Positions 1,119-38,494 of a stretch of 64,000 bases of DNA are shown here, piece after piece. The DNA is from Candidatus Doudnabacteria bacterium (lineage in GTDB: Bacteria; Patescibacteriota; Doudnabacteria; UBA920; O2-02-FULL-48-8). The DNA lies in assembly GCA_037200925.1 (NCBI GenBank), contig JBBCGO010000001.1, positions 447,698 through 511,697 on the forward strand. The letters run 5' to 3'. The notes under the pieces were generated by a model that was not told the DNA's origin, did no database searches, and saw nothing but the letters and a program-made list of their open reading frames with translations. Numbering within the stretch: the first letter of the stretch is position 1; every line of letters starts with the position of its first letter. A program made the translations under genes and the position numbers.

Positions 1119-1129
1119 AACTAATTAAC

Positions 1130-2182: not shown

Positions 2183-2414
2183 AGTTATTTAGCTAATATA
2201 ATGATATATATAAGATTATATACGATATATAAAATAAAGTCAAATTGTACTCCCGCTTGTAATGCTTGAGGAGTTCATCATTTTCGATTGTTAGATTTAT
2301 CATAATTTCAATTTTATTAATAGCTTGAATTTGAATTCTAAATAAAAACAGCCTTTCGGCCGCCATTTATTGCGAATCACGAAATTAAATATGTAATTCT
2401 AGCCTTTTCAGCAT

Positions 2415-3371: not shown

Positions 3372-3372
3372 A

Positions 3373-4961
3373 TTATTTTAATTTAGAAAAAAACTTCCAA
3401 ATCGCAAACATACCATAAGTGTCTAGTTTACAATATTCCAACATCTGACTTTCCTTTTCTTTCGCCATCTCCCCAACTAATTCACCTTTAGTTATTTGTC
3501 GATAAGCCTCGATAGCATCGGTACCATTTTGTACACCAAGTGTTTCATAGGATAAATCTGAAGCCCCTGTTAGTTTGGCGACTATTGGCAAGACTTTTTT
3601 AATTGAGGCTCTGCCTTCAAATCCTGGATGTACGTAATGTTGATCCTCAACTATATCCATCAAATCGTATGTTCTTTCAACTACCTTAAGAAAAAAATCT
3701 TTATATTCTGGTAAAAAAATTGCAAGTTCGCGATTTCGTGTATTTTCGAATTTTTTAGACCACGAAATAACCGTTCCCTTATTACCGATATGTTCTCGTA
3801 AATTCTTCGCGATACGCTCAGAGGGCTCTCCATCTAAGATTAGACATTCGAAATGAGTAGGCTCTGAATTCTCGTCATTTAGAACATGTAACGAATATTG
3901 AAAAACAATTTGTTGGTAGGGACGATATCCGCTATACGGAGGGATGGCAGTTGGATATGTTTCATAGTCGAGAAAATAAAGAGGAAATACAAGCGAATCG
4001 AGTTCGGTCTTGATCGACTTAATATCAATCAATGGTTCTTGAGATTTATGAACCATGATTTGATTTAGTTTTCTTGGTTTACTAGGTTTTTCATTTTTTT
4101 TTGATTCTTTGGGCTTTAATCTATCGTCTATTGGCACATTGCCAATTTCCAGTATACCCTCATTAAGTAACTCCTCTAGATATCTCTTACTATTTCCAAT
4201 TCTATTTAAATCATGAACGCTGTATCTAGGTACGCTCGGGTTGATATAAGAAAACGCTGTGCAATGAGCACTGCGACCCCTATAGTAACAAGGGCATGGA
4301 ACCGAAGGCATTTTTTTACTTAATAAATAGTTTTGGGCCTGCTCCATTTCTTCTACGGCAATTGGTTTCAAGCGTTCTATCGCCTCGGTCTTATCCTCGA
4401 TGATGAAAAGTTGACCTGGTGTGAAATCTAGCTCGCCTTTTCTAATGTATGCTCGATTGAGACGGACAAGATATTTTTTATCCAATGGTACTCCACATGC
4501 TTCAAGAACATTCGCCTGGAAAGCAAGGTCATATTCGTATTGAAGTTCTCTTTTTTATTAACTCTCTTAGGTTTTCCCTCGTCTTCTTCATCATCCTCTT
4601 CGGTTGATGACATTTTTATTTCATATATTTCGTATTTCTGAATTGAATCGTTCCATTTCAGGACGTCGGCAGCAGCAACGTATCTATCAGTCGCAAAAAC
4701 AGCCTGATAAATTACAGGTGTTCGCTCCGTAATAAGTTTTTGAGTCAATTCTTGAGCACCTTCGCTCCGCCTCTCAACGAGATAACCCCCAGGAAACATT
4801 CCCCGTGCTAATTCTTCTACCTCATTGCCCATCACAGCTAACGATTTCTCGAAATCCGATACTTCAAACTTTGCATACTCTTTAGACTCATGTCTTTTTA
4901 CCCAAACGTTGTTTGGACACTCTCGGTAGAGAATAAAATCAGTTTTTGTAAGGAGTGCCAT
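3373..4961 (-). pseudogene. DUF2779/Cas4-like PD-(D/E)xK nuclease-like gene, split into two overlapping ORFs (4428..4961 and 3373..4485) by a +/-1 frameshift in an A6 run near 4549-4554
   Basis: The N-terminal ORF has a Cas4/RecB-like start (TDFILYRECPNNVW). The C-terminal ORF has FLDYETY (DUF2779-like). The frame upstream of the second ORF reads ...KRELQYEYDLAFQANVLEACGVPLDKKYLV, which is continuous with the first ORF after a 1-nt change in the aaaaaa tract. Confidence 0.55.
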
Positions 4962-4966
4962 AAATG

Positions 4967-9526: not shown

Positions 9527-9536
9527 TTTATTGGGA

Positions 9537-9716
9537 TTACTTGTTGCGAAGATTAGAGTTTCTTTTTAGGAACTCCTCAATCTCTATTTTATTAATACGC
9601 CAGTGCCCGACTTTCGTTGCCTCAAGCTTCTTACTCTGGATATAGCGAAAAACGGTCTTATAGCTAAGGCCCAGTTTCTTTGCCGTTTGTTCTATTGTTA
9701 GATAGTCTTTTGTCAT
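9537..9716 (-). CDS. Excisionase-type HTH DNA-binding protein (HTH_17 family), 59 aa, not in the ORF track because it is under 60 aa
   Basis: Manual translation gives MTKDYLTIEQTAKKLGLSYKTVFRYIQSKKLEATKVGHWRINKIEIEEFLKRNSNLRNK, matching the excisionase/MerR-like HTH_17 pattern (...KVGRxWRI...). The stop lies 10 nt upstream of the helicase start. Confidence 0.6.
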   Translation of the reverse strand: MTKDYLTIEQTAKKLGLSYKTVFRYIQSKKLEATKVGHWRINKIEIEEFLKRNSNLRNK

Positions 9717-9952
9717 AGTTAATTACTATACACCATCTGTCCAAAATTGTCAATAATTGTCCAATTTGTCCAGCAACCGGCCGTGATACTAATATTTGCT
9801 ATAAAAACCGTATTGAATTGAGACCGATATTTACTATGCCTTAGTGTCATTCCTGACAGCAGTATTTGCGTAATACTTAGGGCGGGTGGATTTGAGATGA
9901 ATTTATGATTTGGTTGCTTGTTACTGATAGAAGCGGATGATACTAATAATTG

Positions 9953-11098
9953 CTAAAATAAACTCTGTTGTTTCTGACTGGATTTTGGATTGATTCCAAA
10001 TTCTTGCAAGACAAAATTTAGGACTGCCCCGTCAGGAACATTCAGCTCTATCCCCCTAACCTCAATGTCCTTTATCTCTTTAAGGCGTCTGAAATAGGTG
10101 CTGCGAGAGCCAGTGGTTTGCTTAAGATGATTCTTTAGCCCTGCCCAACCTTCCAGCCTTAAAACTCCTACAGCTTGGTATAGCTGTGCCTTAAGTTTTC
10201 CGTCACTATAATTCTTTTCGATAAAATCCTTGACCTGTTGGTTAAGCTGCCTGTAATCATAATCCTTTGAAACAACCAAACCATTCAAGGGATGATTAAA
10301 TATCTGGTCAACTTCGTGCTTCAATAGATCATTGGCAATGTTATACTTGAAAACTTCTGCCAAGGTAAAATTCTTTTTTGACGGATAAAACTTAGATAGG
10401 AATTGTCTGACTGAAGTTACATTGTGCAGGGTCAATTCAAACCTAAGAATAGATTCCTTATTATCGGCCAGCTTTCTGTGAATTTCTTTTTCTTCTTTGG
10501 TAAAACCCTGATCCAGCAAACTCTGAATTTGGTCATAAACCACAAAATGCGACGACGTCCTATTGAAGTATTCAAGATGGGTTAACTGACCATTAGGATT
10601 AAATTTTGGTTCAAATGACGAACGAAATCGGTATTTAGAATGAGCTAAAATTGCCAAAGCTTCTTCGGTGGTGCCGAAGGCTTTCACGTTGAGGTTCTTA
10701 CAATAAGAGACCATCGTTACTACTCCGTCCCTAACACTATTTCGAGAAGCCGATACCTTGATTGAAGCTAAAAAACTTATGATTGAGTCAATCAGAACTT
10801 CAAGATCAGCTTCGGATATTTCATAATAATTCTGGCCGTATTTGAGTTTGGGCAAAGAAACCTCGAGGTATAAATAATTATTACCTCGATTAAAACTGCT
10901 TTGGTGTGTCCAGTATTTCATAATGTAAATGCCCTTGGCTTGCTGGGATTTACGAAATTGGTCGCTGGTATGAATTAACTTTTTAATTCTTTTCTTGCCG
11001 TTCTTATCGTTGTCAAAACTCCCCTTGGCATCCTGAAAATAAGGGTTGTTTTCAACCGAATGAAAATTTGAAATTCTGATTCTTACGCTATCAATCAT
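9953..11098 (-). CDS. Putative rolling-circle replication initiator (Rep_trans-like)
   Basis: HFVVYDQIQSLL...ILRFELTLHN resembles the Rep_trans core (catalytic YDK followed by RxExR). The N-terminus IDSVRIRISNF resembles IDxLRFTF. The call rests on these weak motifs plus context only. Confidence 0.45.
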   Translation of the reverse strand: MIDSVRIRISNFHSVENNPYFQDAKGSFDNDKNGKKRIKKLIHTSDQFRKSQQAKGIYIMKYWTHQSSFNRGNNYLYLEVSLPKLKYGQNYYEISEADLEVLIDSIISFLASIKVSASRNSVRDGVVTMVSYCKNLNVKAFGTTEEALAILAHSKYRFRSSFEPKFNPNGQLTHLEYFNRTSSHFVVYDQIQSLLDQGFTKEEKEIHRKLADNKESILRFELTLHNVTSVRQFLSKFYPSKKNFTLAEVFKYNIANDLLKHEVDQIFNHPLNGLVVSKDYDYRQLNQQVKDFIEKNYSDGKLKAQLYQAVGVLRLEGWAGLKNHLKQTTGSRSTYFRRLKEIKDIEVRGIELNVPDGAVLNFVLQEFGINPKSSQKQQSLF

Positions 11099-11121
11099 AG
11101 AGGGGGTTTTTTAAGAGATGG

Positions 11122-11304
11122 TTAAGTCGCCACCCTGGTCTTAGGAGAACCCCCTCTAAGAGTTGAACCTACAGCCAAGGTAGCAGCTTTACTATCCCTG
11201 TTCTTAATAACTTGTTTTTGCCAGTAATTAAAGAAGTATCTGGCTAAGGCGTCAGACACAGCTTCTTTGTTTTCTTTGGTTAGTTTTGTTCTATGATTTG
11301 TCAT
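11122..11304 (-). CDS. Hypothetical small protein
   Basis: 60-aa ORF, no recognisable motif. Confidence 0.3.
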   Translation of the reverse strand: MTNHRTKLTKENKEAVSDALARYFFNYWQKQVIKNRDSKAATLAVGSTLRGGSPKTRVAT

Positions 11305-11409
11305 TTTTTTGAAACAAAAACAGCCCCATCAGGGCTGTTCTCGTAAGAACAGATTCTAATGGGGCTTCGTAAAGCCTAAGCCACAAAGTCTCGTAAGGCC
11401 TTATGACAC

Positions 11410-12207
11410 TTATTTGTCGGGGATAATTTTCAAATCCTTTGGGATTTGGAGGGTCTCGCTACACTTGCTACATTTATGCGTTCCTCTCATAAAGTGAGAC
11501 ATATCTTCAATTTTGAAGATCAGGTTGCCGCATTTGCTACAAACACAATTCGCACTCTTAATTCTTGGTGAAATTATACCTTCTTTGATGTAGTTGTCAA
11601 CTTGTTTCTTAAATCTTTCCTCAACTTTAAGGGATATATCGTCGGCCAAATTATCAAATCTCTCTTTTAAAGCCATCACGGCCGACCTGACTTCAAATGC
11701 AGGCGATGGAGATGGGCTTGGTGAGTAAGATGGCGATGGTGAAAACGAAGGAGATAAACTGATCTGTTCGACGGTAAGACCAAAATCATATTTTTTATTC
11801 AGAGAAACAACACTACTAATAACTCGGTCACTGGCTTCGGTCAATCTTATTGTAGGTTCAGTTAAGGTGGCAAAATTAGTGGTCAACTGTTGTATTGATG
11901 ATACAACCTTTCCAGCCTGAATAAATACGGGAGAATGAGCTAAATCAGTCAACACTTTTGCGGAATTATTTAGGTCAATCAACATTCCATTATTAACTGT
12001 CATAACCGTGCCTAAATTTGCAAGATTCTGGGTTGCCAAGACTAGGCTAGGAGAATGGATCGTTTCTGCTAATGCCCTTGCCGACCTGGTTATATCAGTA
12101 ACAATTGCATCGTTGATCGAAGTTCCAATAATAGCAGAGACTGGTGCTGGTTTTTTCAAATCAACTTCGTCTTTTTTCTTGTTTTGAGGGGGTTTAGTGT
12201 CGGACAT
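11410..12207 (-). CDS. Hypothetical protein with an SP-repeat linker and a C-terminal Cys4 zinc ribbon
   Basis: SPSFSPSPSYSPSPSPSP repeat. CSKCGN...HKCSKCSETL at the C-terminus. A hairpin plus T-run terminator at 11305-11345 read on the minus strand. Confidence 0.5.
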   Translation of the reverse strand: MSDTKPPQNKKKDEVDLKKPAPVSAIIGTSINDAIVTDITRSARALAETIHSPSLVLATQNLANLGTVMTVNNGMLIDLNNSAKVLTDLAHSPVFIQAGKVVSSIQQLTTNFATLTEPTIRLTEASDRVISSVVSLNKKYDFGLTVEQISLSPSFSPSPSYSPSPSPSPAFEVRSAVMALKERFDNLADDISLKVEERFKKQVDNYIKEGIISPRIKSANCVCSKCGNLIFKIEDMSHFMRGTHKCSKCSETLQIPKDLKIIPDK

Positions 12208-12366
12208 TACTTAGAGGGGTTTATATGCATCAATATATTAACAAAAAACAGGCTTGCCGCCTATTTCAAATTTTGGAATCGCATAGTAAAGGATGTTAGA
12301 ACTCAAATATATACTACACAGAGTGCTTAAAACTACCCTAGAATATTTTAGGAGTTATAATTATTT

Positions 12367-12654
12367 TCAGTCCTCTAACCATTTATTTTTTTGAATGATC
12401 CCAATAAAATATGCGGTTGCGTGTGTTGCAAGTGTAAGTCCAGTCTTACTTAACCCGTCCCAATCGCCGATAGAAATAAAGTGATAAGCCATTATTATAG
12501 CCCAAAGCAATACTATCGCTGGTAAGACATAAATAACACAAATCAAAACATTATTTACTGCGTTTAATGCAGTTTGTTTCCGTCTATGACTTTGTGAAGC
12601 ATCATCAGCTTCCAAATCAGCCTCTGTTGCAACATTTTTGCCTTTCCTTTTCAT
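12367..12654 (-). CDS. Small membrane protein
   Basis: Two hydrophobic helices. Stop/start abuts the ImmA gene. Confidence 0.45.
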   Translation of the reverse strand: MKRKGKNVATEADLEADDASQSHRRKQTALNAVNNVLICVIYVLPAIVLLWAIIMAYHFISIGDWDGLSKTGLTLATHATAYFIGIIQKNKWLED

Positions 12655-12655
12655 A

Positions 12656-13168
12656 TTAGACTATGGTTTGCCCTAGTAAGAATCTTGCTCTCAATGTTGC
12701 CGCAGATTCTGAAACCTTAAATTGCTCTGCAACTTCCGGCAAACTAATAGCATTTTTCCAAACCCTTAAAAATAAGTCTTTAGGCATCAGTAAATCAGCC
12801 GCCATATTATTGGCTTCAATTTCGATCTTTTTTTCAGCGTCTGTTAACTCTCTGCCCTCTTCGCTATTAAGTGCCTTAACAGGTTGTTTAATATTATCAA
12901 TATGTTCATTATTTGTATCAAAAAGATGTTTATGTTGAATGAAATGAGCTATTTCGTGAGCAATTGTAAAACGCTTCCTTGTTAACGGGTGAGAAGTGTT
13001 AATGTAAATAACAAAGTTGTCGCCCTCTTTGCTCAAAGAACCAGCATAATTATCATCTAATTCGCTGGTTTCTACTACATATAGACCTAATTCTTTTGCC
13101 AAATCAACAATAGGCACAGGATTTTGCTGAGCATATTTTGCTAAGATTTGTTCGGTTTTTTGATCCAT
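12656..13168 (-). CDS. ImmA/IrrE family metallopeptidase (DUF955)
   Basis: HEIAHF (HExxH) at the expected position. Family typical of prophage/ICE regulation modules. Confidence 0.8.
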   Translation of the reverse strand: MDQKTEQILAKYAQQNPVPIVDLAKELGLYVVETSELDDNYAGSLSKEGDNFVIYINTSHPLTRKRFTIAHEIAHFIQHKHLFDTNNEHIDNIKQPVKALNSEEGRELTDAEKKIEIEANNMAADLLMPKDLFLRVWKNAISLPEVAEQFKVSESAATLRARFLLGQTIV

Positions 13169-13297
13169 ACTTTTTAGAAAATAATGCCTAATTCTATACT
13201 ACCACACCCTCTGGGTAAAGTCATTGGATAAAATGAGCCTTGCATTCTTCAATTGAAAACCTAAATTACCCAGCTTTAATTTATAGAAAATAAATTT

Positions 13298-13372
13298 TGG
13301 GGTGCCAGACGAGAATCGAACTCGCGTGACCGCTGCCACAGAGCGGCGTTCTACCATTGAACTACTGGCACC
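13298..13372 (-). tRNA. tRNA-His (anticodon GTG) with encoded G-1 and CCA
   Basis: Hand-folded cloverleaf: 8-bp acceptor including G-1:C73. Anticodon stem CCGCU/AGCGG with loop CUGUGGC. T-loop TTCGATT. 3' CCA encoded. Confidence 0.85.
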
Positions 13373-13450
13373 ATAACAATTTAATTACACTACTTGCTAC
13401 ACATCATAATGGCCACATCCTAACAGTTTAATTTGCTTCCACATTGGAAA

Positions 13451-13525
13451 GTCAGCGGCCGAGCGGAATCGGACCCACGTGACAGCTGCCACAGAGCTGC
13501 GTTCTACCATTGAACTACGGGCACC
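13451..13525 (-). pseudogene. Degenerate tRNA-His(GTG)-like copy. The 5' ~47 nt are near-identical to the intact tRNA-His. The 3' half is divergent with a poor T-arm and acceptor and no CCA.
   Basis: Alignment with 13298..13372: 3 substitutions in the 5' 47 nt versus about 9 in the 3' 25 nt. The T-stem pairs only 3/5. Confidence 0.5.
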
Positions 13526-13588
13526 TCGTCTCAGTTTGTAGACACTTCGCGATTTTGCTTCGCAAAATACGCTACGGTCTACACGCTG
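13526..13588 (-). promoter_or_regulatory. Conserved structured tRNA 5'-leader element, copy A (tRNA orientation is the minus strand)
   Basis: About 85-90% identical to copies at 19008..19081 and 38495..38567. Contains a TTTTGC-GAA-GCAAAA hairpin and an outer GYAGAC/GUCURC stem with compensatory changes. Confidence 0.6.
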
Positions 13589-13651
13589 CTCCTCTCAAAA
13601 AATTTGTTCTCGGCCTTCGGCCTGCGACTCAAATTTTTTGTGGTTTAAAAG

Positions 13652-13963
13652 CTACTTACTTGCGACCATGACCGCGAACACGACCACTGTCAGTGCAAAC
13701 ATCCAACCCACAGTATACCCAAAAAACTTCAGCGCTTCTTTTTTCTGTCCATCAAAATACATCAGCACCGGCCGGCCCAATACTAACGCGCTGGTGATCG
13801 CGGCGGATAGCACAAACAACATCAGGACTAAGATAGGAGTAAACGCAGTATCTTTCTGTCCGAACCAAACAGACCCATGGTTCATGATAGATGCGACGAG
13901 AGTGACATACAGCAGCACCAAAACCGCATGACCCAAACTGTGAGCAACTGGATTGTCTTTCAT
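13652..13963 (-). CDS. Small membrane protein (hypothetical)
   Basis: 103-aa ORF with three hydrophobic segments. Preferred over the antisense ORF 13638..13931, which has an implausible composition. Confidence 0.45.
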   Translation of the reverse strand: MKDNPVAHSLGHAVLVLLYVTLVASIMNHGSVWFGQKDTAFTPILVLMLFVLSAAITSALVLGRPVLMYFDGQKKEALKFFGYTVGWMFALTVVVFAVMVASK

Positions 13964-13977
13964 ATTTTATCCTTTCT

Positions 13978-14052
13978 TGGTGCCCCTGGCTGGAATCGAA
14001 CCAACATCAAGGCCTTAGAAGAGCCTTGCTTTATCCATTAAGCTACAGGGGC
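13978..14052 (-). tRNA. tRNA-Arg (anticodon TCT)
   Basis: Hand-folded: acceptor GCCCCUG/CAGGGGC. Anticodon stem AGGCU/GGCCU with loop CUUCUAA. T-loop TTCGATT. CCA encoded. Confidence 0.8.
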
Positions 14053-18773: not shown

Positions 18774-19007
18774 ACAAGCCGAATGAGTCGAACCGGATCC
18801 AGCGGATACTGGAACTGAGCCGCATTAACACGCGGCCAACACCGAAACCAGCACCCAAACGCACCCCATCTTCTTCGCCGCCAAAGTGACTGGGGTCTTT
18901 TTTTACTCTTGAAAAAACCTCTTAATAAATGTAAACTGAATAAGCTTTAGGCATTAAAGCCCAACAAAAATTAAGTGCGGAGACCGTAGGTCGGGCACGA
19001 ATTTTTG

Positions 19008-19081
19008 TTGAGAGGAGCAGCATGCAGACCGTAGCACTTTTTGCGAAGCAAAAATGCGAAGTGTCTGCCAGTCTGCGACGA
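19008..19081 (+). promoter_or_regulatory. Conserved structured tRNA 5'-leader element, copy B
   Basis: ttgagaggagcagcatgcagaccgtagcactttttgcgaagcaaaaatgcgaagtgtctgc followed by ...ctgcgacga, directly abutting tRNA-Lys. Confidence 0.6.
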
Positions 19082-19157
19082 GGAGTGGTAGCTCAACTGG
19101 TAGAGCAGTTGCCTCTTAAGCAATTGGTTCTGGGTTCGAGTCCCAGCCACTCCACCA
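19082..19157 (+). tRNA. tRNA-Lys (anticodon CTT)
   Basis: Acceptor GGAGTGG/CCACTCC. Anticodon stem GTTGC/GCAAT with loop CTCTTAA. T-arm CTGGG-TTCGAGT-CCCAG. CCA encoded. Confidence 0.9.
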
Positions 19158-20982: not shown

Positions 20983-21652
20983 CAGCTTCCTAAATTAGTT
21001 TTAAGATTGCGGATCGCCCCGCTGGCCGTTTCGGTATAGGTTCCGCTGGATCCTACCCCGGCCTTTTTAAATATGGTCAAATTGATCTTGACCAGTTTGA
21101 CGGCTGTGACATTCAGCGGCTGGACCAAAGGATTTTCAACCACTCCGGAATATGTGCCGTCATAATAATAGAAAATCGGATTTGCGCCGTTAGCCACATC
21201 TTTCTGTACCAAATTCACAGTTTCACCGCCAAGATTATAGAGCAAAGGATTTCCGGTAGGCTTGGTGACTCCTTTATACAAAGCACCGGCTTGGAGGAAA
21301 TACCGGATCCGGTTGACGCTGCCTGCCGCATTTGGAGGAAATACCGGATCCGGTTGACGCTGCCTGCCGCATTGGTATAAAAGATCAGCTGTTGAGCTGT
21401 CGCTGATTCCAGCGCGTATCCTCCGGTGTCTGAAGTTGTGGCATCGCGCAATTCCTGGATCAGCGTAAAAGCTACGCGGCGGGCGCTGTCATTATTGGCA
21501 AGCAAACTTCCTTGCAGCGAGCTGTTCACAAGCACAGAGGAAACCAAGGCTACTATCCCGTAAGCGATGATGGAAAAAATTGCAACGGAAATCATCACTT
21601 CTATCAGCGTGAATCCCTTTTCTTGTTCTCTGTTGGATGTTATCTGTTTCAT
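20982..21652 (-). pseudogene. Type IV minor pilin gene (prepilin N-terminus KGFTLIEVMISVAIF), split into ORFs 21215..21652 and 20982..21281 by a 41-bp tandem duplication
   Basis: Deleting one 41-nt unit puts the two ORFs into the same frame (21652-41=21611, same residue mod 3 as 21281). Confidence 0.6.
21291..21372. repeat. Perfect 41-bp tandem direct duplication (2 copies: 21291-21331 and 21332-21372)
   Basis: ttggaggaaataccggatccggttgacgctgcctgccgcat appears twice, head to tail. Confidence 0.95.
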
Positions 21653-21654
21653 GC

Positions 21655-24084
21655 TTACGGGCTCATCAATACCTGGATCGACTGATTACCAGAAATATTA
21701 AGACTGTTCACCGAGAATGGCTGATAACCTGGTAGTGTCACGTCCAAACTATAATTATTGTCAGCGGTTAACCCGCCAAAGCTTGTTTGTCCGGGGGTTG
21801 CGCAGCCGGAAACATAATTGATCGCAACACTTGTCAAAACCGGAGTTTGCAGGCTATCAGTCGTGGCCAGAAATGCTTTATACCGGATATAGCGGTCGTT
21901 ATTGTGAATGCTTGCAATGTTGGTTCCTGAAACGGTGTAGTAAGTTCCTGCCGTGCCGTCAGGCCCCATAAAATTCCAAGTGGCGTTATCGGAATTACTG
22001 GCGATCTGGAACTTGAGGCTGGTTGCCGGGTTTTGGGAAGTCGGGTTCCAGGTCAGAGTGGTAAAATTTGAAGCGCCGCCGGTATCGAACGTGGAAGAAA
22101 CCACTTGCCCGGAAGCTACATAATTCCCTGAAATATTTTTCAATCTGATCCCGGTCGGCAGAGAGCTGTTGTCAATATTTCCGTCATCGGCAAAGTAGCG
22201 GGTCGCAGCCGCAAAATCAGTCTGCCCCGGTCCGCCCGTCCAGTCGCTTTGCACCCAAACGCTGCCGCCCGTGGTCCCGTTAAAATCCTGAGGAGTCGCG
22301 CCGCCTCTGTGCAAATGCACACCCGCCCCTGCAAGCGCATTGCCCGTGCCTGAATCCTTTACGATCACCAAAAGGCTGTTCGCAGTCTGAGTTCCCAGGA
22401 TCATGGTGAACGTCTGGTTGGCTGCCGGCAGCACGCTGATCTGCTGGATGGGCGAAGTGCCGACTACCATCAGATTCTGGCCGGTAAGCAGGGTCGGGGT
22501 GTAGTTGTCCCATTCCAAATTATTCAGAGCGATCAATCCTGCCGAAGAAGTCAGGTTATTGTTGTATTTCAGAACATTCGGGGTAAGGCCGATCAATTTT
22601 GCCCCTGTCAGGTTTACTCCGACATTGCTTAGCGCGCTGCAGGTGGAAGGACCGCTGGCACCGAGGGTAATGGTATCGGTGTCCAATGTCACAGCGCCGT
22701 TGCGTGCGAGCATCCGGCCGCTAACATTGACGCCGGTCGTAACTGTAATGGATGTTAAGGCCAGGACATTTCCTGCGAAGTTGGAAAAAGTTCCAAACGT
22801 TGCTGAACTGCCGACCTGCCAGAAAACATTGCAAGCCTGAGCGCCGTTTATGAGACTGACGCTGCTCGCCCCTGCCGTGATAAGGGTTGATGCAGCTTTG
22901 AAAATAAACACCGCATTCGGATCGCCTTGGGCATTAAGCGTCAGAGTTCCGGTGATCCCAAAAGTTCCGGAAGCGGAATCATATACCCCTGCTGTCTCTG
23001 TAGTTCCGCCAAGTTCTGTGGGAATTGTAGAAGTAGTAGATTGTCCTGCAGCATTATTATAGGCTGCGACGAGGTCTGTTTTCGCTTGAGCAGCCGTTGA
23101 ATCAGCCACATGCTGTGCCCCATTGACCGTGCCGGGGGGAAAGCCGGTAACTGAAGTGCCGGGACTTAAGCCCAGATCCCCGTTGATGCCGCTGGAACCG
23201 GTATTGGTTATGGTCGAGCCGGCCAAAACCGCAAAACTGCCGGCAGTTCCCAGATTTACTTGCGCAGCGCCGCAGGTGGAACCGGTGGCGCCGAGGGTCT
23301 TGATGGTAAGTTTGCTGAACAGATCAATAGAAAAACTGACTAACGTCACCTGGCTGTTGACTATAGTCGGGTCAGGTTTGGTCGGGTTGGGATTCGCTAC
23401 CGTTATCGGGTAAGTCTGGTCGGTAGAGTATCCTGCTTTCGTTACTACAATATGATAGATGTTCACTCCGGGGGGCAAGCCAACTTCCACCCAGTTGCCG
23501 GATGAATCAGTAGTGCGGTCGAGGATTATTGTTCCGGCAATGTTCTGGATATGGACGGATGCTCCGGCAATTGGTTGTCCTGTTGCGTCAAAAGCTTTGA
23601 TCCAAAGCGCGCCGGCATTGACAGTGCCTTCGAGACCAAAAGGGGTGATGTTGCTTGAAAAAGATCTGACCACACCGGTAGTCATATTTTGTATGTTCAG
23701 CTTCACCTGTTTATAATCATCCGGAGCGGCATCAGTGCCCAAAAGAACCGTGCCATCTGCCGGATCATCCACAAAAGTCACTTCATAATAGACCTGATAA
23801 TTAATACCTTCGATGACGATTGTCGCGGGCGTTACGTCATCGGGCAAAACACCAATCGGATTGCCGTGCGCTGTTCCGACCTGGCTATAAGCCAGGTTTC
23901 TGACCACTTCCAGATAATTGGTTGCAAGGCTCGCTATCGTAGTTTGTTCCCGGGAGGCCCGAACGCTCCTTGTCATAACCGAAACAAGACCGATCACTCC
24001 GACCAGCAGAACCGCAAATATGGCTATCGCCACCACCATCTCAATTATCGTAAATCCGTAGCTATTTTTTTTAAATTTAAGCAT
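21655..24084 (-). CDS. Large type IV pilin-like protein (809 aa) with an ice-binding-like DUF3494 domain
   Basis: Prepilin N-terminus YGFTIIEMVVAIAIF. Central SFAVLAGSTITNTGSSGINGDLGLSPGTSVTGFPPGTVNGAQHVADSTAAQAKTDLVAAYNNAAG matches the DUF3494 signature. Confidence 0.75.
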   Translation of the reverse strand: MLKFKKNSYGFTIIEMVVAIAIFAVLLVGVIGLVSVMTRSVRASREQTTIASLATNYLEVVRNLAYSQVGTAHGNPIGVLPDDVTPATIVIEGINYQVYYEVTFVDDPADGTVLLGTDAAPDDYKQVKLNIQNMTTGVVRSFSSNITPFGLEGTVNAGALWIKAFDATGQPIAGASVHIQNIAGTIILDRTTDSSGNWVEVGLPPGVNIYHIVVTKAGYSTDQTYPITVANPNPTKPDPTIVNSQVTLVSFSIDLFSKLTIKTLGATGSTCGAAQVNLGTAGSFAVLAGSTITNTGSSGINGDLGLSPGTSVTGFPPGTVNGAQHVADSTAAQAKTDLVAAYNNAAGQSTTSTIPTELGGTTETAGVYDSASGTFGITGTLTLNAQGDPNAVFIFKAASTLITAGASSVSLINGAQACNVFWQVGSSATFGTFSNFAGNVLALTSITVTTGVNVSGRMLARNGAVTLDTDTITLGASGPSTCSALSNVGVNLTGAKLIGLTPNVLKYNNNLTSSAGLIALNNLEWDNYTPTLLTGQNLMVVGTSPIQQISVLPAANQTFTMILGTQTANSLLVIVKDSGTGNALAGAGVHLHRGGATPQDFNGTTGGSVWVQSDWTGGPGQTDFAAATRYFADDGNIDNSSLPTGIRLKNISGNYVASGQVVSSTFDTGGASNFTTLTWNPTSQNPATSLKFQIASNSDNATWNFMGPDGTAGTYYTVSGTNIASIHNNDRYIRYKAFLATTDSLQTPVLTSVAINYVSGCATPGQTSFGGLTADNNYSLDVTLPGYQPFSVNSLNISGNQSIQVLMSP

Positions 24085-24089
24085 TATGT

Positions 24090-24434
24090 TTAAGGCGAAT
24101 ATTTGAAGGGGTCGGGGTTGGTCAGCGTCAGGCCTGCGGGCTGGAAGCTGTCCAATGCATCAAGGAACTTGGAGACGTCGCTTAGTGAAGTGCGGTTGAT
24201 TCTGACAATGCTGTTATTTTCCGAGACCTGCGGCTGAGGCGATAATTTGGTGTACAGCAAAAAGTAAGCCAGGTAGGCCTCGATCAGGATCACCACGACC
24301 AGGATCAGGGTGGTAACCATGCGGATGCTGATTTTTTTGGGTAAAGCAAGTTTCATATCAGGGCTTGGGTCTCTGTACAAAAAATACGGCATTAATAGCG
24401 CCTGTAAGATCCCCCGAGTGGACGACCTCTCCAC
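24090..24434 (-). CDS. Small membrane protein in the pilus operon. Probable start at MKLALPKK, near 24357.
   Basis: TM segment TTLILVVVILIEAYLAYFLLY. Overlaps the upstream pilO-like ORF. Confidence 0.4.
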   Translation of the reverse strand: MERSSTRGILQALLMPYFLYRDPSPDMKLALPKKISIRMVTTLILVVVILIEAYLAYFLLYTKLSPQPQVSENNSIVRINRTSLSDVSKFLDALDSFQPAGLTLTNPDPFKYSP

Positions 24435-24969
24435 TGCCTGCGGTAGCGGTATCAGAGGTAGCGGCGCTGACGGTAAGTTTGCTGACCTCGGAAAAATTCG
24501 GCAGGTGCTCTATATATTGAAGGAAAGTGACCAGAGAGGTGAATGTGGATGAAATACTGACCGTGTAAGGGATCTCTTCTATGTCCGGGTTCCCCGTTAT
24601 GATCTGCTTGGCCGTGGTATCCAAGGTCTGGTCCGTCGAATTCAGGGGTTCCTGGATCGTCATCCCTTCCTCGGTATTGGATGCCAGCGCCGCGGCCTCG
24701 ACCTCCTGTATCGCCGTCTGCAGATTGTCGCGCGGCAAAATGCTGTTTTGGATCTTGTCGGTATTGGAAACCGCGCTCAGATCCGATTGGGAATTCTTAT
24801 AGGCTATGATCTGGTCCGAAAGATTATTCAGCTGCGTCTGTTTTGCTATGCCGGCATTATACAGATCGCCGACCTGATTCAAATTCGGGCGGATGAGAAA
24901 AGCAAAGATAATGACGCTGACAATAAAGCCGCCGACTGAAATTAAAATCAATTTGGTGAAAATTCTCAT
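24358..24969 (-). CDS. pilO: PilO-like pilus assembly protein
   Basis: N-terminal TM plus coiled-coil architecture. Position between pilN and the pilins. Confidence 0.55.
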   Translation of the reverse strand: MRIFTKLILISVGGFIVSVIIFAFLIRPNLNQVGDLYNAGIAKQTQLNNLSDQIIAYKNSQSDLSAVSNTDKIQNSILPRDNLQTAIQEVEAAALASNTEEGMTIQEPLNSTDQTLDTTAKQIITGNPDIEEIPYTVSISSTFTSLVTFLQYIEHLPNFSEVSKLTVSAATSDTATAGSGEVVHSGDLTGAINAVFFVQRPKP

Positions 24970-25523
24970 GGGCTGTTGATCTTGTCGTTGTTTACAAAAA
25001 AAGTAAAAGTAAAATTGGCGGTTGTGGCCCGCTCAAGGTTTGAAAGCGGAAAATTTATGCCGTGAAAAAAACCTGATTTTATTATGCTGGTCCAAAGCGC
25101 AATCACATCTTCGCGCGTTTTGGCTTGGCCCGCGATATCAACCCTCCCCGTTTCCCGGTCAAGGATTATCTGGTTCAGCTGAACAGTCGTGGGAGTCAGG
25201 TTCGCCAGAGCGATCAGGGCGTTTGACCAGTAGTAATGATGGGATTTAAGATTATTGATCTCTTTGACGCTGTTGTTCAAAGCCAAAACCTTGTCCTGCA
25301 GGCCCTTATAGTCAGCGGAATTAAGAATAGCCATGTTTTGAGCGATCTGATCGTCCGTCTGAGAATTGCTTCTCATAAGATAGATCCTGGTTCCCACCGC
25401 CAGCCCCAAAAAAACCAGCAGGCTTAGCGTAAGCCATGTCCAAAACATGAACAGCCTGCCGAACAGGAACTCAAATGTGACTTCTTTTTGCGCGTCTTGG
25501 GGCAGGAGGTTGATTATTTTCAT
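24966..25523 (-). CDS. pilN: PilN fimbrial assembly protein
   Basis: N-terminal INLLP motif plus TM. Confidence 0.7.
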   Translation of the reverse strand: MKIINLLPQDAQKEVTFEFLFGRLFMFWTWLTLSLLVFLGLAVGTRIYLMRSNSQTDDQIAQNMAILNSADYKGLQDKVLALNNSVKEINNLKSHHYYWSNALIALANLTPTTVQLNQIILDRETGRVDIAGQAKTREDVIALWTSIIKSGFFHGINFPLSNLERATTANFTFTFFVNNDKINSP

Positions 25524-26608
25524 ATGCTGTATTCGTTAAAGTTGACTCCGCGCAAAGCCAGGCCGATGACCGTGGTGTAGCCTAAGGCGGAAAGCCGGTC
25601 AAGCGGTACTGGGATCTTCGGGTCAACTGCAACATTCGCCCACGGATCGGCCAGAATGACTTTGGCCGCAGAGCGGACCGACCCGAGGTTCAGCCGGTCG
25701 GAAATATATTCGGCAATTCCGGTCAATTTAGCCGAGCCTCCGCAGAGCAGGATCGTATCAATGCTTTTGTGGGTTGTTTCGTGTTCTTCAAAGAACCTGA
25801 TGACATTTTTTATCTCATCCACGAGGTTGTCCAGGATCGGCAGGATCGCTTTGCGCACTTCCAGCCCTTTGTCGCCGGTCAAACCCAGCTCCTGTTTCAT
25901 TTTTTCGGCTTGCGGCGCCGTGACTCCGAGATTTCTGGAAATGCTTTCCGTAAACGCGTTGCCGGCGATCGGAATGCTGGAAGTGTACTGGATGATCCCG
26001 TTGTCCACGATGATAAAACTGGTCAGCTTGGTTGCCGGGTCCACGATCAAAACGCTTTTGGTCGCAAGGTCTCGGCTGATCAGAGCTCTGGCCGTCGCCT
26101 GCGACTCCAGCTCCATGGCCACCGGCACGAGTTTGGCTTTTCTAAGCGAAGAAACAAGCGCGTCTATATAATCTTTGGGAGTGGCGTGCGCCAAAACCTC
26201 AAGTTTGTCTCCCCCATCCTTGATGATCTGCCAGTCAAGGTAAACCTGGTCCACAGGCACCGGAATATCCTGTTCAAGTTCGAACGGGAGCGCGGTCCCG
26301 ATCTCGCTTTCCGCCATTTTGGGAATTGTCAGGGTGCGCACAAATGATTTGGCTTCCGGAACGGAACAGACCACGAACTTGGTGTCTATCTTGCGCGCCG
26401 CCGCAATCGCGCGGAGGATATTGTCCGCCAGCCGGTCTTCGCTGATGATCATGTGATTATTGACCACCTGTTCGGACAGCGGGGAATCGGTAAAAGGTAT
26501 TGACGCCAAACGGCCGTGCGCATAGACCAGCTGCATGACTTTGATGGAAGAATCGGAAATATCCAGGCCGAATGCTTTGATTTTTTTACTGCTCAAAAAT
26601 GAGAACAT
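25520..26608 (-). CDS. pilM: PilM actin-like pilus assembly protein
   Basis: Actin/FtsA-like fold motifs. Operon position. Confidence 0.8.
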   Translation of the reverse strand: MFSFLSSKKIKAFGLDISDSSIKVMQLVYAHGRLASIPFTDSPLSEQVVNNHMIISEDRLADNILRAIAAARKIDTKFVVCSVPEAKSFVRTLTIPKMAESEIGTALPFELEQDIPVPVDQVYLDWQIIKDGGDKLEVLAHATPKDYIDALVSSLRKAKLVPVAMELESQATARALISRDLATKSVLIVDPATKLTSFIIVDNGIIQYTSSIPIAGNAFTESISRNLGVTAPQAEKMKQELGLTGDKGLEVRKAILPILDNLVDEIKNVIRFFEEHETTHKSIDTILLCGGSAKLTGIAEYISDRLNLGSVRSAAKVILADPWANVAVDPKIPVPLDRLSALGYTTVIGLALRGVNFNEYSI

Positions 26609-26656
26609 TTTATTTCAGGATCAAACGATGACTTGTAGAAATTATAGCACTTAATA

Positions 26657-27868
26657 TTAACTTATGCTTGAACTAATATTGTAGATCGGCATGATCAAAG
26701 CCACGGCCAAAAATCCGACCGCTACCCCCATGACCATCATGATCAGCGGCTCCAGAATTGACGACAGGTTTTTCATGGTCTGGTCCACTTCCTGCTCGTA
26801 AAAATTCGCCACTTCCTCAAGCACCACGTCCGTGGTGCCCGATTCCTCCCCGACTTCCATCATCTGGATCACCAGGTTGGAAAATAATTTCGGCTCTTTT
26901 TTGAATGCCGTTGTCAAAGGAGAGCCGATCTTCACTTTTGACGCCGCATCAAGAATGGTCCGTTGGTAATAAATATTGCCGACGACGTTCGAAGAAACTT
27001 CCAGCGCCTCGACGATGGTCATGCCGCTTTTGATCAGCGATGCGAACACGCGGACAAACCTCGCCAGATTGATCTTGATCACAATGCCGGAAATCACCGG
27101 GGTATAAAGCACTAATTTGTGAAGAACTTTTTTGCCGCCCATGGTCGAGCGCCAGTAAAAAAACCCGGCCACGGCCAGAACGGTGCCCAATAAAATAAAT
27201 ATGCCGTAGTGGGCAAAAACATCGACGAGCCCGATGACGATCCTCGTCGGGAGCGGCAATACGACGTTCAGGTCCGTAAATGTCGAGGTCAGTTTCGGCA
27301 GGACAAAGGTCAGCATCAGATAGCCGACAATGGCCAAAGCGATCAGGACCATGATCGGATAGGTCAGGGCTCCCCGGGCTTTGGAAACCAGGTCATAATC
27401 CCTCTGCATCTGCTCGGCCAGATATGTCAGATTTTGTTCGAGGTTGCCCGACATTTCCCCGGCCCGCACCATGCTCACGAAAATTCCGGAAAATACATTG
27501 GGGTATTTCGCCATGGCATCGGCCAGTGAAGTGCCGCTCTCAACCTGCGCAGCAACCTCGTTCACGATCTTGGCAAACCTCGGATTGGGCGTCTGTGCGG
27601 CCAGGACCTTCAGCGACCTGGTGGCCGGAAGACCCGCCTTGATCATGACCCCGAGATTTTTGATGAACGTGATGCGGTCAATGAGTTTGATGGGGCGGAA
27701 GATCTGGAACAAATGGCCGATATCAAAAGCCTGGTGAACCGCCTTGATCGATGTCGGCAGCAGGCCCTGGGCGCGCAAAGCGTCAACCACAGCCCGTTCG
27801 TTCATGGCCTGCATTATGTCTTTTTGGATGACGCCCGCTTTATTCCGGGCGGTGTATTGGAAATCCAT
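26657..27868 (-). CDS. pilC: Type IV pilus platform protein PilC (GspF family)
   Basis: Two GspF repeats. Three TM segments. Confidence 0.85.
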   Translation of the reverse strand: MDFQYTARNKAGVIQKDIMQAMNERAVVDALRAQGLLPTSIKAVHQAFDIGHLFQIFRPIKLIDRITFIKNLGVMIKAGLPATRSLKVLAAQTPNPRFAKIVNEVAAQVESGTSLADAMAKYPNVFSGIFVSMVRAGEMSGNLEQNLTYLAEQMQRDYDLVSKARGALTYPIMVLIALAIVGYLMLTFVLPKLTSTFTDLNVVLPLPTRIVIGLVDVFAHYGIFILLGTVLAVAGFFYWRSTMGGKKVLHKLVLYTPVISGIVIKINLARFVRVFASLIKSGMTIVEALEVSSNVVGNIYYQRTILDAASKVKIGSPLTTAFKKEPKLFSNLVIQMMEVGEESGTTDVVLEEVANFYEQEVDQTMKNLSSILEPLIMMVMGVAVGFLAVALIMPIYNISSSIS

Positions 27869-27875
27869 ATCAGGA

Positions 27876-27909
27876 AATTTCTAAATTACTAAAATTCCAA
27901 GTTCTAAAT
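27876..27909 (-). promoter_or_regulatory. Conserved 34-nt element, 7 nt upstream of the pilC ATG
   Basis: aatttctaaattactaaaattccaagttctaaat (plus-strand reading). About 30/34 identical to 29732..29764 upstream of pilB. Confidence 0.5.
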
Positions 27910-27973
27910 TTTTGTTGATTAGGCATTAGTAATTTTTTAGAAATTATAATTTCAGAACTTCAGTCATTTTTTT

Positions 27974-29722
27974 TTACTCCCTGCTCACTCTCACTATCTC
28001 CTCTATCGTCGTCTTGCCTTGCAGGCATTTGATGAATCCGTCCTGCCACATCAGGATCATCCCTTCCTCCACGGCCTTTGCCTCCAGCTGGCTGGTCGGC
28101 GAGCGCTTCATGATCAGGTCCTGGACCATAGTGGAGATCTCCATCACTTCATAGATGCCCTTGCGGCCGCGGTAACCCGAATGCCCGCACTTATCGCATC
28201 CTTTTCCGTGAAAAAAAGTCAGTTCCATCAGGCCGGTTATTTTCTCGTCAATGAATTTCTCGCGCTTGAGGATGGCCAGCAGGGCCGGGACGTCATAATC
28301 TTTTTTCAGAGTTTCTTCAAGCTCCGCGTCAATTTTGATCTCTTCCTTGCAGTCGGGGCAGATCTGGCGGGTCAGGCGCTGGCCGACCACGACGTTGACC
28401 GTGGACGCGATCAGGTACGGCTCCACGCCGATATCCAAAAGCCTCGGCAAAGCTCCTGCCGCATTGTTCGTGTGCAGGGTGGATAGCACGATGTGCCCGG
28501 TCAATGCCGCGTGCACGGATTCCTCGGCGGTCTCAGCATCTCTGATTTCCCCGATCATGATGATGTTCGGGTCCTGCCGTAAGAGCGCCCGCAAACCCAT
28601 GGCAAAGGTCAGGCCGATCTTGGGACTGACCTGCGTCTGGTTGATGCCTTCTATGCGGTACTCTATCGGGTCCTCGATGGTGGCAATGTTCACACTCTTA
28701 GTATTCAGAAGCGACAGGATAGAATACAAGGTCGTGGATTTTCCGCTGCCCGTGGGCCCGGTGACCAGCAGAGCGCCATGCGGCTTCTTCACGTTCCTCA
28801 TAATGACCTCGTAATTGCGCGCGATAAATCCGAGTTCCTCCAATGTCATGGCTTTCGTGGACTCGTCGAGCAAGCGCATCACGACCTTCTCGCCGTCAAA
28901 CACGGGGATGGTGGATACGCGCAAAGAGATATTGTAATTCTCCTTCGCAACCTTGAACCGGCCGTCCTGCGGCAAACGGTGCTCGTCTATCTTGAGGTTG
29001 GCAATGACCTTGATGCGGGCGATCAGCGCCGGCTGGATGATCTTCGGCAAGGTCATGACATCATGCAGCACGCCGTCAATCCGATACCTGACCATGACCT
29101 CTTTTTCCTGCGGCTCTATATGAATGTCCGATGCTTTTTCAAATATCGCGTATTCCAGCAGAGTATCCACCACGCGGACCACGGGAATTTCCTCCGCCAT
29201 TTCTTTGAGCTTTTCCGTGACATTCTCCGTGCCGGCCGCGCCTTCTTTTTCCTGCTTGGTGATGATCTTGGCAAACTCCGCCTCAAGACTCGTGTGGTAC
29301 TGCTTCAGCCCGTAGTCCAAAGACGCTTTGCTGATGAGAAAAGGCACGATCTGCAGGTCGGTCGTCTTTTTTATGGAATCCCGGGTCTCCAGATCATCCG
29401 GGTCCGTCATGCCCACGTTCAGCTTGCCTTTCTCGCTGCCGAAAGCGATAACCTTATGCCTGCGAGCTATCGGCTCCGGCACCAAAAGCAGAACTTCTTT
29501 GGGTATCTGGCCCATGTCCGTCAGGTTCTTGTATTCCACATCGAAAAATCCGGCGATGATCATGGCCAGTTTTTCTTCGTCAATGATCTTTTTCTCAACC
29601 AGAAGGTCGTTCAGCTCGCGCCTGCCTGCCACAGCTTCTTTTTCTAAAGTTGTAAAAGCCTCAGCAGTGGTGAGTTTTTGGGCCACCAGGCTCCGCTTCA
29701 ATTGTTCTGTGTCAAAAGCCAT
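27974..29722 (-). CDS. pilB: Type IV pilus assembly ATPase PilB (GspE family)
   Basis: Walker A GPTGSGKSTT. MIGEIRD. C-terminal tetracysteine. Confidence 0.9.
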   Translation of the reverse strand: MAFDTEQLKRSLVAQKLTTAEAFTTLEKEAVAGRRELNDLLVEKKIIDEEKLAMIIAGFFDVEYKNLTDMGQIPKEVLLLVPEPIARRHKVIAFGSEKGKLNVGMTDPDDLETRDSIKKTTDLQIVPFLISKASLDYGLKQYHTSLEAEFAKIITKQEKEGAAGTENVTEKLKEMAEEIPVVRVVDTLLEYAIFEKASDIHIEPQEKEVMVRYRIDGVLHDVMTLPKIIQPALIARIKVIANLKIDEHRLPQDGRFKVAKENYNISLRVSTIPVFDGEKVVMRLLDESTKAMTLEELGFIARNYEVIMRNVKKPHGALLVTGPTGSGKSTTLYSILSLLNTKSVNIATIEDPIEYRIEGINQTQVSPKIGLTFAMGLRALLRQDPNIIMIGEIRDAETAEESVHAALTGHIVLSTLHTNNAAGALPRLLDIGVEPYLIASTVNVVVGQRLTRQICPDCKEEIKIDAELEETLKKDYDVPALLAILKREKFIDEKITGLMELTFFHGKGCDKCGHSGYRGRKGIYEVMEISTMVQDLIMKRSPTSQLEAKAVEEGMILMWQDGFIKCLQGKTTIEEIVRVSRE

Positions 29723-29731
29723 AAGATAAAA

Positions 29732-29764
29732 AATTCTAAATTACTAAAGTCCTAAGTTCTAAAT
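29732..29764 (-). promoter_or_regulatory. Conserved 34-nt element, 9 nt upstream of the pilB ATG
   Basis: aattctaaattactaaagtcctaagttctaaat. See 27876..27909. Confidence 0.5.
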
Positions 29765-29807
29765 AATCTCGCAACCCTGAACTTGGTATCGAAACCCTGA
29801 ACTTGTT

Positions 29808-38420: not shown

Positions 38421-38494
38421 TGGTCGGGGTGCTGGGAATTGAACCCAGTCTACCTGCTCCCAAAGCAGGCGTACTACCGGTATACGACACCCCG
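38421..38494 (-). tRNA. tRNA-Pro (anticodon TGG)
   Basis: Acceptor CGGGGTG/CACCCCG. Anticodon stem CCTGC/GCAGG with loop TTTGGGA. T-arm CTGGG-TTCAATT-CCCAG. CCA encoded. Confidence 0.85.

Follow-up and report, generated by a model that had tools for sequence, protein, structure and literature searches.

A mobile structured RNA cassette that abuts tRNA and protein gene starts in Candidatus Doudnabacteria

Why would a long folded leader end exactly where a tRNA begins, and at three different tRNA genes within 64 kb? The question is raised by a stretch of 64,000 nucleotides from a Candidatus Doudnabacteria bacterium (contig JBBCGO010000001.1, positions 447,698 to 511,697 of the forward strand), hereafter called the window. 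An earlier note on this DNA, made from its letters alone, had described a ~74-nt structured leader immediately 5' of three tRNA genes, with compensatory base changes. The element turns out to be a structured RNA cassette that has proliferated, has not been described before, and keeps an unusually strict relation to gene starts; the copies collected so far come from a few Candidatus Doudnabacteria genomes. It fits none of the known kinds against which it was tested, and its classification as a new kind is provisional.

The three copies of the window all lie in the orientation of their tRNA: at 18962-19081 (+) before tRNA-Lys(CTT) (19082..19157, +), at 13526-13642 (-) before a tRNA-His (13453..13525, -), and at 38495-38608 (-) before tRNA-Pro(TGG) (38421..38494, -). 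Each ends with ...CTG[A/C]GACGA directly 5' of the tRNA, as called by ARAGORN and Rfam, the boundaries falling at 19081/19082 (Lys), 38495/38494 (Pro), and 13526/13525 (His, with G-1 as the first tRNA base). The three tRNA-adjoining copies of the earlier note are borne out by a 24-nt degenerate core pattern, which matches three times in the window against 0.00 expected from shuffles; the 10-mer TTGAGAGGAG also matches three times, against 0.16 expected. Their cores are 81-87% identical and fold better than their own shuffles (z = -2.8 to -3.7). A covariance model (see below) scores the His copy at 114.8 bits and the Pro copy at 95.9 bits, and finds no fourth copy in the window at E<0.1; the other four tRNAs lack the element, as the note had said. 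The extents, however, have to be redrawn. The conserved unit is longer than ~74 nt, as ~45 nt more on the 5' side, forming a hairpin domain (P1/P2), belong to it, and the shorter unit itself had been placed 10 nt short in the His copy (13526-13588, the equivalent span being 13526-13598). The typical length is ~115 nt, and 115-160 nt as inserted.

How far does this family extend? Among the matches listed, at least 13 distinct copies were collected from about seven Doudnabacteria assemblies. The pattern scan of GTDB species genomes gave 24 listed matches, six of them true copies and the rest chance matches in GC-rich coding DNA, and that of JGI metagenomes one true copy among the 10 matches listed. 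The covariance model was built from ten copies, and its search of the same loci then added three more divergent ones to give the 13. Over ~300 kb of further related Doudnabacteria DNA, the model found no copy except in two loci (L173 and L174), where it is identical to that of a third (L012). The phage and plasmid collections contain no match to the element, and pattern scans of IMG/VR returned chance matches only, among the matches listed. With Rfam 15, the gathering scan of the whole window and four loci detects tRNAs only, and permissive scans (E up to 5-10) of three separate copies give no sense-strand match on the element, which is touched by two weak antisense chance matches (E 2.7-4.4). 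The literature yielded nothing relevant on ribozymes or leaders of Patescibacteria or Doudnabacteria, nor on the sequence string of the element.

A wider spread, across classes of the candidate phyla radiation (CPR), was considered for three loci titled 'Candidatus Saccharibacteria' and rejected, the ribosomal protein L27 encoded in one of them being identical to a Doudnabacteria protein. Because of this identity, and because the nearest named relatives are Doudnabacteria, the family is treated as confined, so far, to Doudnabacteria. The 'uncultured Candidatus Saccharibacteria' labels of these GTDB representative metagenome-assembled genomes (L012, L019, and L021) look unreliable, and that of L012 looks wrong; the Met-Met-Asp tRNA cluster of L021 is syntenic with a Doudnabacteria genome.

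What is conserved is a fold. From 5' to 3', the element consists of the P1/P2 hairpin domain, a purine strand AGAGGAG, a long irregular hairpin (P3), and a tail GACGA. Across the 13 copies, pairing holds in 95.2% of the cells, and both sides have changed in 22 of the 31 pairs. None of 500 shuffles reaches the observed values for pairing and double changes, and slid-partner controls are 24-45% paired. The covariance-fitted alignment behind these values favors the structure of the model; the same helices came out of an independent MAFFT/RNAalifold run. The covariation proposed from the three window copies is thus much more strongly supported with the added homologues. P1 is a helix of 10-13 bp with an A-tract as its 5' strand and a U-tract as its 3' strand; nine of its ten pairs have changed on both sides, and its base covaries freely (CGAAC/GUUCG, CGGAC/GUCCG, UUCCC/GGGAA, CAAG/CUUG). 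In ten copies it is capped by P2, GUGCGCAG-(hairpin)-CGAGCAC, and the three others have a different or minimal cap, for which reason P1/P2 is regarded as accessory. The AGAGGAG strand is unchanged in 12 of 13 copies, and its GGAG in all.

P3 starts with P3a (GCAGC/NCUGM, replaced by GCAAU/AUUGC in one copy), followed by a hinge of 1-2/2-4 nt, P3b (GYAGAC/GUCURC), a nearly invariant internal loop CGUAGC/GCGAAG, and P3c. The sequence of the latter is swapped outright while pairing is kept (UUUUGC/GCAAAA, CCCC/GGGG, CCGUU/AACGG, AUCCGC/GCGGAU). Helices 4-6 are 93-96% paired, with double changes in five of the seven pairs of P3c. The central two bases of each loop arm do not vary among the copies, and we take the GUA/GAA within the loop to be the signature of a bulged-G (loop-E / sarcin-ricin-type) module. 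The tail GACGA is invariant in all 13. These invariant unpaired or non-canonical positions (GGAG, the central loop bases, GACGA) are set in cores only 52-88% identical overall, as is typical of RNAs that are catalytic or tightly bound. Selection acts on the fold.

In the Lys copy, P1/P2 occupies 18962..19010 (+), as an 11-bp A-tract/U-tract helix CAACAAAAATT/AATTTTTGTTG with a cap GUGC...GCAC and an apical hairpin, defined by covariation and the minimum-free-energy (MFE) fold. It is followed by the joining strand AGAGGA (19011..19016, +), which with the next G reads as the Shine-Dalgarno-like AGAGGAG, by P3 (19017..19076, +; P3a GCAGC/NCUGM, hinge, P3b GCAGAC/GUCUGC, loop CGUAGC/GCGAAG, P3c UUUUUGC-GAA-GCAAAAA), and by GACGA (19077..19081, +), whose last base abuts tRNA-Lys +1 at 19082. 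The His copy is divided in the same way on the minus strand (P1/P2 13642-13596, AGAGGA 13595-13590, P3 13589-13531, GACGA 13530-13526). The Pro copy, also on the minus strand, has a variant P1 lacking the P2 motif (CAAUUUCAAAUGC/GCAUUUGAAAUUG, 38608-38565), then AGAGGA (38564-38559), P3 (38558-38500), and GACGA (38499-38495). Two details read from these copies at the outset hold: the inner hairpin TTTTGC-RAA-GCAAAA is perfect in all three, and the outer stem, GCAGAC/GTCTGC in the Lys and Pro copies, reads GTAGAC/GTCTAC in the His copy.

GAGGA and GACGA may pair as G.A, A.G, G-C, G.A, A.G, forming a putative GA-type foot, and the central G-C is the lone pair predicted there in MFE folds. With such a foot, the closure of P3 would fall on the final nucleotide of the element, beside the pair that closes P1. 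In the MFE fold, element and tRNA form domains independent of each other. This purine-rich foot, like the P1/P2 domain and the insertion status discussed below, was absent from the earlier note. Other partners for the tail were tried and rejected. A pseudoknot with the 5' strand of P2 (GUCGCAG/CUGCGAC) reaches 7 bp in L019 and 6/7 in the His copy, with 3-5 bp elsewhere and three copies lacking P2, and pairing with the CCGUA loop amounts to 3 bp only and is broken by the variant of L006-2. A hidden open reading frame (ORF) was also rejected: the frame AGGAG-CAGC-AUG of the Lys copy becomes GUG-UAG in the His copy and AUG-UAG or AUG-UAA in several others, with no conserved peptide.

Is the element a feature of tRNA genes? 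Nine copies precede tRNAs (Lys, Pro, two His, two Met, two Asp, and Glu), and in eight of these, 0 nt separate GACGA from the mature tRNA 5' end; in the His case of the window, the boundary lies before G-1, which is the mature end. The remaining four abut protein start codons, with 0 nt before the ATG of rplQ (MRHLKK...), 1 nt before that of rpmA (MAHKKAGG...) and of a pilN-like gene following pilM, and 2 nt before that of a KGG-repeat stress gene; the starts of these four genes are secure. The description as a leader specific to pre-tRNAs does not survive these four copies: the element is not tRNA-specific. The earlier note had held copies unrelated to tRNAs, at random intergenic sites, to speak against its reading. 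Copies unrelated to tRNAs do exist, but not at random sites: all 13 are in the sense orientation, every one at a gene start. The distance to the cargo is 0-2 nt in 12 of them and 3 nt in one (L145 1284-1405), where CGT stands before the G-1 of tRNA-His.

The contexts are promoter-proximal leaders, tRNA-tRNA spacers, and operon interiors (between rpoA and rplQ, between pilM and pilN, and within the tRNA-Arg/ORF/element/tRNA-His series of the window). No sigma70 hexamers (-35/-10, 16-18 nt spacing) occur inside the element, and such sites are found only upstream of P1. A sigma70-like promoter TTGAAA-17-TAAACT (18909..18937, +), ~25 nt upstream of the Lys copy, is the probable start of the Lys leader transcript, and comparable sites precede P1 in L003 (TTGAAA-17-TATAAT) and L019 (TTGAAA-17-TATACT). 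On the minus strand, a perfect consensus sigma70 promoter TTGACA-17-TATAAT (14177-14149) upstream of tRNA-Arg(TCT) implies a mixed transcript comprising a tRNA, a small membrane ORF, and a tRNA, within which the His copy probably lies. With covarying stems and promoters located upstream of it but none inside, the element is a structured RNA-type element and not a promoter, in agreement with the earlier note; so is the ordinary promoter of tRNA-Arg(TCG), sigma70-like TTGATT-17-TATATT with TG, 21 nt upstream. A sigma54 promoter was rejected, the GGCACG-N4-TTGC-like string in P2 being AGCAC in most copies, without the obligatory GG. So was an intrinsic terminator in P1/P2: the terminator scan is silent, the U-tract is paired to the 5' A-tract, the base of the helix covaries, and the domain sits upstream of or between co-oriented tRNAs. 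In a crude scan of gene starts in the window, many well-supported ORFs have an A/T-rich upstream region with no Shine-Dalgarno (SD) motif and others have strong GGAG sites; the organism appears to mix SD-dependent and SD-independent initiation.

Was the element always at these sites? At tRNA-His, the comparison can be anchored on the small ORF between tRNA-Arg and tRNA-His. In five relatives with an ORF 70-75% identical, tRNA-His lies 8-9 nt past the stop codon, and the element is absent from the whole locus. The only occupied sites are those of the window and of L145, the latter with an ORF more distant than those of the five empty relatives, and the two insertions differ in subtype (66-72% identical) and in exact position. 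Comparison of filled and empty His sites reveals no terminal inverted repeats and no target-site duplication. Polymorphism extends to the ORF-linked sites. The rpoA-rplQ junction is 6-10 nt long in relatives, and the element stands at rplQ in one genome; pilM and pilN overlap by 14 nt in L155 and also overlap in the window, and the element lies between them in one genome (L003); the rpmA of an 80%-identical relative has an unrelated leader. Since the occupied junctions are short or overlapping in relatives, downstream expression must survive a structured insertion of 115-160 nt.

Subtypes also cross genomes and cargo. Copies within one genome are as low as 66-68% identical, and up to 82-88% between genomes. 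The copy at the KGG gene is 84-88% identical to the tRNA copies of the window, the copy at the L17 gene (rplQ) is 87% identical to a tRNA-Met copy, and subtypes are swapped between L006 and L021 at the orthologous Met-Met-Asp tRNA cluster. Together with the site polymorphism, this indicates that the element moved or was copied repeatedly between tRNA and mRNA contexts, and the sharing of subfamilies by tRNA and mRNA cargo means that its function cannot depend on cargo type. No transposase or reverse transcriptase is associated with the copies in the loci examined; a Y1 transposase gene did turn up, but only in a relative that lacks the element (L159). The string TTGAGAGGAG, found at pilM/pilN of an element-free relative, was considered as a native SD or recombination anchor and rejected; there it encodes LRGV of PilM, and stray matches in 175 loci are at chance.

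Several observations concern the neighborhoods of these sites. The tRNA-His behind the window's His copy (13453-13525, -) matches the intact syntenic tRNA-His of L155 over ~60 nt, and its T-arm and 3' acceptor strand are decayed (38.5 versus 63.9 bits). Another tRNA-His, intact and with a different T-arm, follows 80 nt downstream (13298-13371, -), and it looks as if the ancestral gene was replaced. GC content is 0.37-0.40 in 1-14000 and 0.45-0.54 in 14001-64000, a step located at the tRNA-Arg/His cluster that may be an island boundary. Before rpmA, two Doudnabacteria relatives (L169 9889-10000 and L170 7732-7843) carry a different leader of ~112 nt to which the model gives no match. In this leader, the AUG start codon lies between the strands of a perfect long-range helix of 11 bp, CAUUCGACUUC...GAAGUCGAAUG, and the interior displays a hairpin UUCAGC-CGCAA-GCUGAA flanked by GGUCGAAG/CGAAGACC, with CGAAG occurring four times; it may be an independent rpmA regulatory leader. 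The type IV pilus cluster (window ~21600-29800, -; L003 1824-6331) is syntenic in relatives and comprises pilin-like proteins with an N-methylation motif and an ice-binding-like domain, pilM/N/O, a platform protein, and an ATPase. The gene content of the window includes type IV pilus/type II secretion system ATPase and platform proteins, pilin-like proteins, a lamin-tail-domain protein, and holA. One of its ORFs, of 103 aa, is 100% identical to a protein of a Candidatus Doudnabacteria metagenome-assembled genome (locus tags WDN47_); the host of the window is a CPR/Patescibacteria bacterium, not a phage.

What, then, could such a cassette do at the start of a gene? The reading that we prefer, as a possibility that stops short of being probable, is that it is transcribed and cut at its 3' foot, thereby defining the 5' end of the downstream tRNA or near-leaderless mRNA. 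The cassette would be transcribed in sense as a promoter-proximal leader or an intercistronic spacer. AGAGGAG would pair non-canonically with GACGA, closing the structure exactly on its last nucleotide, and a cut at this foot would release either a tRNA with a mature 5' end (G-1 for His) or an mRNA starting 0-2 nt before its AUG. At tRNAs, RNase P could suffice as the cutter, and at ORFs self-cleavage or a structure-specific nuclease would be needed. What is observed are the fold, the exactness of the junctions, the sense orientation of the copies, and their polymorphism as insertions; transcription, the foot, and the cut are proposed from sequence. A selected fold with invariant non-Watson-Crick positions, a 3' end locked onto two kinds of cargo, and a long insertion that is tolerated are most simply accounted for by such a cut. 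There is a precedent in the HDV-like theta ribozymes, which abut phage tRNAs and have been proposed to trim tRNA 3' trailers (PMC10879173). In a bolder and unlikely version, the element would be a small self-cleaving ribozyme of a new class, with a cut at its own 3' terminus and no need for downstream sequence, which would make it a mirror image of the HDV and hatchet ribozymes, and it would behave as a mobile "5'-terminal intron". Self-excision would let it invade the 0-10-nt spacers of a streamlined CPR genome, and what remained would be a leaderless mRNA or a tRNA whose 5' end had matured independently of RNase P.

Several points weigh against a cut at the foot. CPR bacteria keep RNase P RNA (PMC8172020), and tRNAs need no such device. 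Relatives manage with tRNA spacers of 8-10 nt, and the CGT of L145, which corresponds to the last 3 nt of the ancestral (relatives') spacer, suggests that insertion is not intrinsically exact. No small ribozyme is known to cut at its own 3' end unless it pairs with the sequence that follows, and no ribozyme family gave even a weak match in the permissive Rfam scans of three copies. Self-cleavage would leave a 5'-OH, reportedly poor for leaderless translation in E. coli. Finally, the joining strand is a good SD sequence, which favors a non-cleaving role at the ORF-linked copies.

Comparison with known ribozymes sharpens the picture. Theta ribozymes are likewise small structured RNAs with one end against a tRNA gene, patchy and multi-copy, and proposed to stand in for, or to help, the protein enzymes that mature tRNA ends (PMC10879173). 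They differ in being HDV nested double pseudoknots that cleave at their own 5' end and trim 3' trailers, whereas the element is built of nested hairpins, has its 3' end against the 5' end of the tRNA, is found before ORFs as well, and has a putative cleavage only. An HDV-like or theta ribozyme was thus rejected, since the complementary segments follow the fully nested order a b c c' b' a' and the tRNA-touching end is the 3' end of the element. More generally, the HDV-like, hammerhead, pistol, twister, and hatchet folds are ruled out by topology and by the position of the cleavage site. For the hammerhead in particular, which has a three-way junction and a stem I made with downstream sequence, only nested two-way helices covary, the core strings (CUGANGA ... 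GAAA) are absent, and the downstream sequence varies with the tRNA or ORF that follows.

The minimal hinged form of the hairpin ribozyme is H1-loop A-H2-hinge-H3-loop B-H4. The element resembles it, in architecture only, by a helix stack with two conserved internal-loop regions, a hinge, and one loop-E/bulged-G loop, as well as by a purine-rich strand (AGAA in the hairpin ribozyme, AGAGGAG in the element). In contrast, it has no H1 to downstream sequence and no N|GUC site, and its loop strands are opposite. The hairpin ribozyme was therefore rejected as well: sequence 3' of the junction has no partner, the loops differ from N|GUC and AGAAACA/GUAUAUUAC, and there is no Rfam match.

Could the strict junctions arise without any cut? 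They might if the cassette were a split SD adaptor, with AGAGGAG as the ribosome-binding site, P3 looped out, and GACGA (+0-2 nt) as the spacer to the AUG, a doubtful reading though one with real substance. At tRNAs, RNase P would remove the cassette, GACGA serving as a single-stranded leader, and opening or closing of the purine foot could gate the access of both the ribosome and RNase P. AGAGGAG could pair, with one G.U, with CUCCUUU of a canonical 16S rRNA 3' tail. The four ORF copies (L003, L012, L022, and L145-1) all have 5-7 nt from the 3' foot of P3a to the AUG, the geometry of T4 gene 38, with no other SD between element and ATG. Some window genes do use GGAG-type SDs, and the tolerance of only 0-2 nt at ORF junctions would be explained. 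In T4 genes 38 and 25, a hairpin between SD and start codon likewise restores an effective spacing of 5-7 nt. Those hairpins, however, are of ~20 nt, single-copy, and found only before ORFs, whereas that of the element is far larger (~60 nt), with invariant loops. Moreover, nine of the 13 copies precede tRNAs, where an SD has no role and AGAGGAG is equally conserved, and the 0-nt spacing there would be left unexplained. Many genes of this genome, and rplQ in relatives, start without an SD, which may thus be dispensable.

A selfish small mobile repeat, MITE/REP-like or RNA-mediated, would need no host function at all: hairpins and loops would serve its own propagation, as single-stranded DNA or as RNA recognized by a transposase, a reverse transcriptase, or a ligase, and the junction pattern would reflect the insertion mechanism or the insertions that survived. 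We regard this as unlikely in its pure form. It would account for presence and absence at orthologous sites (tRNA-His, rplQ, pilN), for subtypes swapped between genomes and cargo, for two His insertions that differ in subtype and position, and for several copies per genome, three of them within the 64 kb of the window. The Correia/NEMIS, REP/REPIN, BOX, RUP, and ERIC repeats are comparable in being ~100-150 bp long, multi-copy, hairpin-forming, and polymorphic between relatives, and some of them carry promoters and are processed in mRNA. These repeats, however, insert in both orientations at loosely defined places between genes, and they come with terminal repeats or with a partner transposase (RAYT). 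The element, unlike them and ordinary MITEs, is in sense and at a gene start in 13 of 13 cases, displays neither terminal inverted repeats nor target-site duplication at filled versus empty sites, has no transposase or reverse transcriptase by its copies in the loci examined, and has no true copy among the matches listed from the phage, plasmid, and IMG/VR collections. A selfish repeat is compatible with a cleavage function, and some of the readings can hold together: an element both selfish and self-removing, an unlikely case, would combine two of them. Quite improbable is a cis-regulatory RNA (ligand-, protein-, or temperature-responsive) or a processive antitermination RNA, like HK022 put or B. 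subtilis EAR, that would co-regulate the translation apparatus. The two-domain fold, the invariant junction nucleotides and covarying stems, the promoter-proximal or operon-internal location, and the 11 of 13 cargoes that are tRNAs or ribosomal proteins would suit it. Yet with 0 nt between element and cargo there is no expression platform, and the abutment would go unexplained; the element is missing from most relatives, which is odd for a core regulator, and pilN and the KGG stress gene fall outside a translation regulon. A signal acting at the DNA level, either a promoter starting at tRNA +1 or the A of ATG or a terminator of the upstream gene, is hardly credible, even if P1/P2 resembles a GC-rich hairpin followed by a U-run and the junctions match where leaderless transcripts would start. 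No -10/-35-like hexamers lie at a constant distance from the junction, P1/P2 goes unflagged in the terminator scan and has its U-run paired to the A-tract, and a terminator in tRNA arrays would silence the downstream tRNA. As the stems of P3 covary, P3 must be transcribed, or single-stranded.

If the foot is indeed the site of a cut, whether made by the RNA itself or by a nuclease of the host, the cassette would be the first known natural means of setting a precise RNA 5' end whatever follows. Its closest functional analogs would be the RiboJ-type insulators, cassettes between promoter and cargo that remove themselves, as proposed here for the element, and make expression independent of upstream context. 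RiboJ differs in being engineered (hammerhead plus hairpin) and in leaving a defined hairpin on its cargo; we know of no natural equivalent that leaves a clean 5' end. Should cleavage be demonstrated, the element would be a new class within a known kind, the self-cleaving ribozymes. A cut would bear on tRNA maturation without or alongside RNase P, on the origin of leaderless mRNAs in CPR bacteria, and on the way selfish RNA elements colonize very compact genomes without killing gene expression, and the cassette would be usable as a sequence-independent insulator for tRNA, guide-RNA, or mRNA arrays. Even without cleavage, a single conserved module that serves and moves between tRNA genes and ORFs, for which no described counterpart was found, offers an experimentally tractable handle on gene expression in an uncultured phylum.

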